From IMG/VR virus record IMGVR_UViG_2713896798_000007: a DNA stretch of 47,837 nt. One strand, 5' to 3'. The position numbers are program-made. Source of the DNA: a virus. Taxonomy: Duplodnaviria; Heunggongvirae; Uroviricota; Caudoviricetes. Within the stretch, counting starts at the first letter, position 1. Every line of letters begins with the position of its first letter. Positions 1 through 3,000 of this stretch are shown in pieces.

Positions 1-3000
1 CTACGATAGCCGCGCATTCAACATGGCTACCTGTTCGTCGTTCATATCATCAATCCACATACCGTAAATTTCATACACCATCTGCGCAGTTTCATGCCCC
101 ATCTGGCTGGCTATAAATGCCGGGTTCGCTCCTGCCGTCAACAGCCAGCAGGCAAAAGTATGCCGCGTATGGTACGGATTACGGCGGCGAATACCAGCAC
201 GTTTTACTGCTGCATTCCACCTTGCCCCCAAACTGCTTACCGAGTAATAAGGTTTCTGTTTTCCGTTACACACCCTGGGCATGAAAACAAAATGCAGTTT
301 TTGCTTTTCGGTTCTGCCGTACTCCCGATGATAAAAGGTGATTTCGCTTTTGCGATGATGCCCGGTCAGTTTGTATTGCTCCTTCAGTGCTTCAAGAGCA
401 GGCTGCAGTAATGTTACTGTCCGGATCCCGGCATTTGTTTTTGGGGGACCGAACATATCCAGTATCGTCAGGTTTCTTCTGACATTCACAGTTCCCTTCT
501 CGAAATCCACATCCTCCCACGCCAGAGCTGCCAGTTCCCCGTGACGAAGCCCGGAGTAAACGGCAAATTTCCACAAGTTTTGGCTCTGTCCTTTTTCACT
601 TTCCATTAATGCATTGAATTCTGTTTTAGATAACGGGTCAGGCTTTATTCTGTTTCGCTGTAATTTTTTTACTCCTTCAAATGGTTTGGTTGATATAAAT
701 CCCGACTGATACGCAAAACGTAACAGCGAACAGAGCAGGGCGATATAGTTATCAACTGTGCGCACGGTTCTTCCTTTTTTGTTGGATCTTGGATTATCCA
801 GGTAAAGCGTTTCTCCATGCAGCAGTTTATTCCGGTAGTTTAAGATATCGCTATAACGAATATATGATATCGGGGTACTTTCACAAATTATTATTCTGAG
901 TGTTTTTAATTGTGATTTCGTTTTCTTCATTGTGTTTGTTGTTAACTCTGTCTCTTTAATTTTTGTCCAGATATCACAAAGCTCCCCGAACGTTTTTATG
1001 ACTCTCGTTGTCACCATTTTTGCCCCAGTGCTGGACTGGGGAAAACGTCTTAAATACTCAAATTCACCGGAGTTTATTTCATGAACTATCAGCGCTCTTA
1101 AATTTCCGGCCTTTTTAATATTACTGTTTGTAATCTCCCAGCCTTTTAATGTTTCCCGACATCGTTTTCCTCGAAACATGAACCAGATGCGAATGTTTCT
1201 ACCTCTAATCTCGACACCTGTTGGTAATTTAGACATATCATGAGTCTTTGATAAACTGATTTATCTTTGGATAGTTGTACCAGATAATCCCTCGTTTGCT
1301 GTCTGGCTTACCTAAAGGAGATACTCGTTTGAAGTGGAAGCCCTCCACCCAACAGTTCTGGCGGTATGCTTCAATTTGTCTGGCCCCCAGACCAGTGCGA
1401 AGCATCAGGCCGTATTCAACCATCCACTCTTCATTAAAGATTACTTGTGCCATCGCATCACCTCTGGCAGGCGCCAATGTTAGACTGAAATTGACGCCTG
1501 ATGTTGATTATTAATAATCAGCTATGAAGTTTTAATTTGAATACAATGCAATTCACGAGGACTGAAGTTTCTCGCAATTAAAATTTATCAGTTTTACTTT
1601 CTGCTCTCTGGAAACGCCTGCTTCTTTTTTACCTGAGAGCATTTTTTCGCATTCTGATTTCGTTAGTTTAGATTTTGAATATCTTGTCCAGTTAGTAGGA
1701 GTGCCACCTTCCTTTTCAATTGTAGCGGTAATTTTATACATGAACGCCTCCATTAATATTTTCAGTGGTTCGTTTATCCCATCTTTCGAGCGCTTCTTTT
1801 TCACTTCCACCATAGCCAGTTCGGGATTCGCATCCGTTGCATTTTGCCCGGTAATATCATGAAATGTCTTTCACCGTTACTGATGGACAACCACAAAACG
1901 GACATGGTTTAACATCGTCATATCTCAAAGTTTTTGTCATAAAAACTATCTCACGTTGGCGGTGCATTACACCGCCTGGCTGAATTATTCTTCTGAATTA
2001 TCGATTACACTGTATTCCCCGGTTAATACAGAGGAGTCTGCCGGATCGATTGTCAGTGGTTCCTTTTCATCCATTGATACTGCACGCTGGATTTCAATTG
2101 AGACAGGCAGGTATTTAAACAGGCGACGAATAGCCGTTTTTTTTGCCATTTCTTCCCAGTGAGTTACCCACGGCCCGTTATTACCTGCCTTACTCTGGCT
2201 GCGCACCAGTTCAATCTGTTTGCGCGTCATAACTTCAAACTGAGTCCCTCCGTCTTTCAGTCTTGCGACAGCATAGACGTGGGTCACTGGTGCATCTTCG
2301 TTTTCTCCCGGGCGGTGTATTAACTTTTCATCAAGGCCAAATTCGAAGCTAAACTCGTCACCTTCACGGACAACACGGGCTGACAGGCTGGCGATTTGAC
2401 CAGAACGGCGAGCCAGATCAATCATGCCGCGATAGCCAATGATTAGCTGAACGTTCTTTTTACCGCTCTTTTCGTTTTTATTACCAAAAGGCAGTAAATA
2501 TGCGTGGCCAAGGGCGCTACCTGGCTCAAGGCCGAGCTGTGAACACTGTACGATTGCACTGACAAAACTCATAGTGTCACAGTTTCCTAACGCTGGAACG
2601 TTACGAATTTCTGTGGTGGCGATACGGATCATACGTTCAGCCGTCATATGGCGTGGAAGAGCTGCTGCCAGTTGCTCTTTCATTGATGGCTGGTTAATAA
2701 AACTAATCACGTCGTTATTTTTAACTGCTGCTGGTGCACGGTTTCCCTGAGTTTTTTGCAGATCGGCTTTTGCGATTGGTGGTTGCTTAGTCATTTGCAT
2801 ATTCCTTAGCCCAGCGGGGCAGTGATAACGTCTTAATAGCTGGCCATTCATCGGTATTGAGGCAGTCAGCCAGGGTCCTCAGATTGCGGTGATATTCCTG
2901 CTGGCCTGCCAGTTTTGCTTCTTCGCCCATCATGAAAATCTCAATCGGGTAACGTCCGCATTCAACAGTTGTGCTGGCAACCAGAAAAACGAAAGTTGGC

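Follow-up and report, generated by a model that had tools for sequence, protein, structure and literature searches.

Organization of the ralR locus

The window analyzed here is a 47,837-nt stretch of viral DNA (Caudoviricetes; IMG/VR record IMGVR_UViG_2713896798_000007), in which the gene order recE-recT-ralR-DUF1187 (rcbA/ydaC)-xisR-intR matches that of the Rac prophage of Escherichia coli K-12. RalR is an experimentally characterized DNase toxin, and the Hfq-dependent sRNA RalA prevents its translation (PMC4041452). Translation of the minus strand from 1967 to 1734 yields MHRQREIVFMTKTLRYDDVKPCPFCGCPSVTVKDIS, a stop, YYRAKCNGCESRTGYGGSEKEALERWDKRTTENINGGVHV and a terminal stop. In this frame, the ralR pseudogene occupies 1734..1928 on the minus strand and comprises 64 codons plus stop, starting at a TTG (1928..1926) aligned to the ATG of K-12 and ending at a TAA (1736..1734). 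PGAP gives the same coordinates in identical sequence and labels the feature 'ralR, internal stop'. The premature stop is a TGA at codon 24 of 64 (1857..1859, minus strand), where intact alleles carry GGA (Gly).

The original prediction of a RalR-like gene interrupted by an in-frame TGA at 1857-1859 is borne out by this translation and by the Pfam family PF14354 (Lar_restr_allev), which matches the Gly-repaired protein with 50.8 bits (cut-off 28.6). The match covers residues 9-58 of the 68-aa form (Gly restored) and spans both Cys pairs. The N-terminal fragment alone scores 23.9 bits, under the cut-off of 28.6. Of the extent proposed initially, 1734-1940, the end is retained while the start is not: the ATG at 1938..1940 (minus strand), four codons upstream of the TTG, is in frame, but the alignment with K-12 and the PGAP annotation both place the start at the TTG at 1928. 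A further in-frame ATG is located 13 codons upstream of the TTG (1967..1965, minus strand). TTG is the canonical ralR start in the allele family formed by the window, SJ7 and KFu024, and in CAU16175 an ATG takes its place. A GC-rich 7-bp hairpin (GGCGGTG-UAAUG-CACCGCC, 1958-1976, minus strand), located between the recT stop and ralR, is perfectly conserved and harbors the ATG at 1967 in its loop; as no U-run directly follows, it is not a canonical terminator.

A 401-nt query around ralR found matches in 1,911 of 5,426 complete E. coli genomes. The features under these matches are always annotated 'ralR: type I toxin-antitoxin system endodeoxyribonuclease toxin RalR', with recT and DUF1187/rcbA on the flanks. 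The Pfam match and the gene order identify the window gene as ralR, which encodes the DNase toxin in the RalR/RalA type I pair.

As proposed initially, Cys pairs lie on either side of the TGA. The first knuckle, CPFC (Cys9-Cys12, 1893..1904, minus strand), is found 5' of the TGA within CPFCGC, whose cysteines are encoded at 1904..1902 (Cys9), 1895..1893 (Cys12) and 1889..1887 (Cys14), and it is kept in the 23-residue product. The second knuckle, CNGC (1830..1841, minus strand), with Cys30 at 1841..1839 and Cys33 at 1832..1830, is located 3' of the TGA and is no longer translated. The repaired RalR has a Cys spacing of CxxC-x17-CxxC; the term 'zinc-ribbon-like' derives only from this spacing, the Pfam match and a weak profile match of the ralR product to Zn_ribbon_Elf1 (E=0.021), and it is used here as a tentative label. 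A search for a solved structure of a RalR relative returned only chance matches to a chitin-binding protein (E=0.02).

Relation to the Rac prophage and further features of the window

The window and the K-12 Rac region (PMC4041452) share the recT-ralR-ydaC/rcbA-xisR-intR position of ralR, a length of 64 codons, a RalA gene antisense to the neighboring gene and a pairing site inside the coding region, with 93% DNA identity over 401 nt. They differ at codon 24, which is GGA in K-12 and TGA in the window, at the start codon (ATG in K-12, TTG in the window) and at five amino acids of RalR (N5D, A21D, N51D, G57E and N59I). The K-12 Rac prophage is a defective remnant. Unlike K-12 Rac, the window prophage is full-length, spanning ~46 kb, and its closest annotated relatives contain head, tail and lysis genes.

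Several other elements were recorded along the prophage. The isrK / C4-antisense RNA pair, known from P1/P7-type antirepressor control, is present in two copies (6958-7146, minus strand, and 16308-16506, plus strand). A hok/sok module is represented by sok (13170..13344, plus strand), and STnc100 (17427..17620, plus strand) is followed by AgvB, an anti-GcvB sRNA, at 17621..17682 on the minus strand. At 17281-17340 (plus strand), a weak Rfam tRNA match (37 bits, model positions 7-64 of 71) was obtained, and ARAGORN found no tRNA over the whole window; relatives annotate a tRNA-Met in the equivalent region, and a prophage tRNA that has degenerated may lie here. The type III secretion effector gene nleC, at the distal end of the prophage (46850-47837, plus strand), is broken into two ORFs that overlap (46850-47650 and 47601-47837), an arrangement that indicates a frameshift. 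The near-identical locus of strain F6294 is annotated 'nleC, frameshifted'.

The premature TGA at codon 24

All six intact alleles that were aligned (K-12 MG1655, KFu024, O103 RM8385, PEC422, CAU16175 and SJ7) carry GGA, coding for Gly24. Alignment with intact homologues thus identifies the codon that the TGA replaces. On the plus strand, the base concerned is 1859, which is A in the window and C in intact alleles. SJ7 represents the closest intact allele: over 1650-2050 (401 nt) base 1859 is the sole difference, with G in SJ7 and T in the window on the coding strand. Its RalR (WP_096245389.1, shared with CAU16175) is the same protein at every residue except 24, and in both strains, which have GGA at codon 24, the gene is annotated as functional. 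Since SJ7 matches the window at all other bases of this region, the lesion is best described as a single nonsense change, a recent G-to-T transversion on an SJ7-like allele that turned GGA into TGA and was not followed by later decay. This agrees with the preference expressed initially for a recent nonsense mutation. No second disabling mutation was found in the carriers compared base by base, which fits a recent origin and would also suit retention of the allele.

Homology to the 64-aa RalR is continuous across the stop, which rules out two unrelated genes; a single 64-codon gene has been cut in two by the TGA. From the TGA to the TAA the frame contains neither ATG nor GTG nor TTG, and it has just one ATT, at 1757. 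Re-initiation 3' of the TGA is therefore ruled out, which agrees with the initial description of a downstream part lacking a start codon. With the frame for the whole Lar_restr_allev domain interrupted by the in-frame TGA at codon 24, the locus is a pseudogene of the Lar/RalR family, as PGAP has it.

Pairwise dN/dS values among intact alleles range from 0.02 to 0.19. In a thin sample of homologues (seven matches from a tblastn search of a phage collection and nine loci from a scan of genome contigs, two of them usefully divergent), the homologues from Citrobacter braakii (70% identity) and from a proteobacterial MAG (61%) preserve both Gly24 and the four Cys, and a Klebsiella-phage Lar-like homologue with 45% identity preserves Gly24. 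The second knuckle reads CDGC or CSGC in distant homologues. Purifying selection on the intact alleles, together with the conservation of Gly24 and of the Cys residues, points to full-length ralR as the selected state. The Klebsiella phage frame, in vB_KpnP_XY3 (PV296009, bases 1544-1735), is unannotated, 45% identical to RalR and without the first Cys; it contains an in-frame stop of its own (…ISGHFRA*CSGCEAKS…) and is apparently what is left of a Lar homologue carried by the phage.

The RalA sRNA and the overlapping DUF1187 gene

The RalA antitoxin sRNA is present at full length at 1557..1735 on the plus strand (Rfam RF02694, covering model positions 1-179 of 179 with 218.2 bits against a gathering threshold of 170). 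The sRNA runs antisense to the DUF1187 gene, with its 3' end directly adjoining the stop codon of ralR. Its pairing site in the ralR mRNA is located at 1792..1807 (minus strand), ~50 nt downstream of the premature stop. A direct repeat between 1620-1632 in RalA and 1792-1804 in ralR agrees at 12 of 13 positions, including a contiguous run of 10; in K-12, the complementarity of RalA and ralR comprises 16 nt, 11 of which are contiguous (PMC4041452). With its toxin gene interrupted, RalA in the window is in effect an orphan antitoxin. The RalA terminator stem (1700-1735, plus strand) shows one C.A mismatch relative to the Rfam consensus (GUAGC in the window, GUGGC in the consensus). The same mismatch occurs in SJ7 together with an intact ralR and therefore reflects variation of the allele family that is unlinked to the TGA.

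The rcbA/ydaC-like DUF1187 gene extends over 1553..1741 on the minus strand (Pfam PF06688, E=2.2e-38; coordinates as given by PGAP in identical sequence). Its ATG overlaps the 3' end of ralR (ATGTATAA). A separate GGAGG Shine-Dalgarno sequence precedes this ATG by 5 nt, so that strong polarity of the ralR stop on DUF1187 would not be expected.

Distribution of the G24* allele

An exact 33-mer centered on the TGA was found in 18 of 5,426 complete E. coli genomes, so that the allele, designated G24*, is rare, with 18 carriers among the 1,911 genomes matching the ralR region. An exact 69-mer was matched by 15 of the 18 carriers, and 14 carriers are identical to the window over 1650-2050. Three aligned carriers from Okinawa (OkiPb01680, OkiPb01700 and OkiPb01711) combine the TGA with one extra synonymous SNP at 1875. 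The 18 carriers were isolated from cattle, beef, veal and humans. Those whose records were inspected come from the USA and Japan, and strain designations suggest Canada, Australia and Russia in addition. In all four carrier records that were opened, PGAP/RefSeq describes a 'ralR, internal stop' pseudogene. The pseudogene status of G24* is thus already known from public RefSeq annotation, and the finding is real and ordinary, a familiar type of lesion in a known gene.

A sequencing or assembly error at the stop of the window, which was raised initially as an objection, would be suggested only by the fact that a single base is concerned. It is a substitution, not a homopolymer indel; the same base is found in 18 independent complete assemblies from several laboratories and countries, and the three Okinawa genomes pair the TGA with a further private SNP. 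We regard an error as extremely improbable, and the identical base in the 18 independent assemblies was taken to rule it out. Because 18 complete genomes share the allele, G24* is an inherited variant.

The surroundings of the allele differ between carriers. The one case compared in detail is strain 2013C-3264, which differs from the window by two SNPs over the first ~2.5 kb (from intR through most of recT) and is ~3-5% divergent from recE onward. In this strain the Rac-type module adjoins ttcA. Such a pattern would fit a single origin of the TGA on an int-to-recT module whose neighbors were then swapped by lambdoid mosaicism. The first 12 kb of the window differ from NZ_CP038372 (strain F6294, labelled O157:H7) by two SNPs, and the rest of the prophage is 95-99.6% identical.

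A second nonsense allele

Typical O157:H7 strains carry another ralR truncation, in which the TGG of Trp50 is changed to TGA (e.g., NZ_CP133128), independently of G24*. Like the window allele, this W50* allele (WP_001443846.1) has a premature TGA in the same prophage module. It differs from G24* in the codon affected, in its K-12-like allelic background and in retaining both Cys knuckles, and it is far commoner, since an exact 35-mer occurs in 310 complete genomes. PGAP calls its product a normal 49-aa RalR, not a pseudogene. Strain F6294 contains two tandem Rac-type elements, one with W50* and one with G24*. Judged from these two alleles, truncation of ralR is recurrent.

Read-through, recoding and selection as alternative readings

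Read-through of the UGA had been ranked below nonsense mutation from the outset, and the sequence context agrees with this order. E. coli reporters and proteomics identify TGA as the leakiest stop, read mostly as Trp, with reporter read-through of anything between less than 1% and several percent (PMC11126739). If Trp or Cys were misincorporated at a level that is low and yet matters for function, the allele would be an attenuated and not a dead toxin. In favor of this reading, base-by-base comparison of carriers shows no damage to the downstream half, and the second ralR allele, W50*, also ends at TGA. However, the +4 base after the UGA is U, a context that favors termination, as T after a stop raises termination efficiency in E. 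coli, and the published read-through rates are inflated by the weak RF2 allele of K-12 (PMC11126739), which is unusual in its weakness. No stimulatory structure was found 3' of the UGA: the 73 nt starting just before the UGA have a minimum free energy of -12 kcal/mol, compared with an average of -13.5 for the shuffles (z=0.51), and an equal or better fold was reached by 134 of the 200 shuffles. All homologues seen, as distant as 45% identity, have Gly at the position of the lost residue, and a Trp may not be tolerated in its place. The undamaged downstream half carries little weight, because the allele is rare (18/1,911), one SNP from its intact parent and too recent for decay to be expected. 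Functional read-through is accordingly judged very unlikely, and nothing supports programmed recoding at this UGA, a site without special marks. Background misreading at a fraction of a percent, giving traces of a G24W protein, is possible. Selenocysteine insertion or another form of programmed recoding could be suspected from the position of the UGA among Cys residues of a metal-binding motif, but no hairpin immediately follows the UGA (z=0.51), homologues have Gly at this position, neither Cys nor Sec, and the TGA is a derived state one SNP from GGA. In the Citrobacter, MAG and Klebsiella-phage sequences position 24 translates to Gly; no homologue was found with a stop at codon 24, and the TGA is limited to the allele of the 18 genomes. 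A permissive Rfam scan (E<=1) of positions 1-6000 returned RalA as the only match and, together with the fold at z=0.51, rules out a SECIS element or read-through structure. Of all the readings considered, programmed recoding is the most improbable.

A different question is whether the loss of the toxin is adaptive. A DNase toxin would be costly on prophage induction, and ralR might be knocked out repeatedly in multi-prophage strains, here mostly Shiga-toxin-producing or cattle-associated ones. The two independent nonsense alleles, G24* (n=18) and W50* (n=310, including typical O157:H7), and the presence of both in F6294 speak for such a scenario. Set against this, two events among ~1,900 genomes do not exceed the number to be expected if a prophage gene that is normally repressed decays neutrally, intact alleles are under purifying selection, and the frequency of W50* may reflect the clonal expansion and heavy sampling of O157:H7. 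An adaptive loss is thus considered unlikely, although less so than functional read-through, and two events cannot decide between selection against the toxin and neutral decay. A more speculative combination of both ideas holds that ralR is a recurrent TGA target in multi-prophage lineages, where a leaky UGA supplies a trickle of DNase and RalA is kept as a buffer. If true, the toxin-antitoxin module would be tuned down, not deleted; we consider this to be as improbable as functional read-through itself.

Predicted loss of RalR function and its implications

In the best explanation, to which we assign a probability of about 0.93 and which no observation contradicts, a Rac-type lambdoid prophage of E. 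coli carries a ralR allele that has simply lost its function. One G-to-T transversion, converting Gly24 GGA to TGA, would have arisen once in an SJ7-like allele. Translation is then predicted to end after 23 residues from the TTG (27 from the ATG at 1940), and the product would keep the first CxxC knuckle and lose the second along with the entire C-terminal half. Given truncation at residue 23 of 64, such a peptide should have neither a fold nor toxin activity, a prediction made from the length of the product. The allele would have been inherited and moved among strains on the int-xis-DUF1187-ralR-recT module of mosaic prophages, with the RalA sRNA and the overlapping DUF1187 gene left untouched by the mutation. 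Any full-length protein would come solely from background misreading of the UGA, for the most part as Trp, at a site whose context is unfavorable to read-through.

For annotation purposes, the prophage should be counted among those that have no functional RalR toxin, with RalA retained as an orphan sRNA. This bears on counts of toxin-antitoxin systems and on the prediction of restriction-alleviation or DNase phenotypes in Shiga-toxin-producing E. coli, and matters little beyond annotation. At the same time, the intact SJ7 allele and the window allele form a natural near-isogenic pair, one SNP apart in the 401-nt ralR region, and this pair, together with the W50* allele of O157:H7, could serve a small study of toxin-gene decay in resident prophages.
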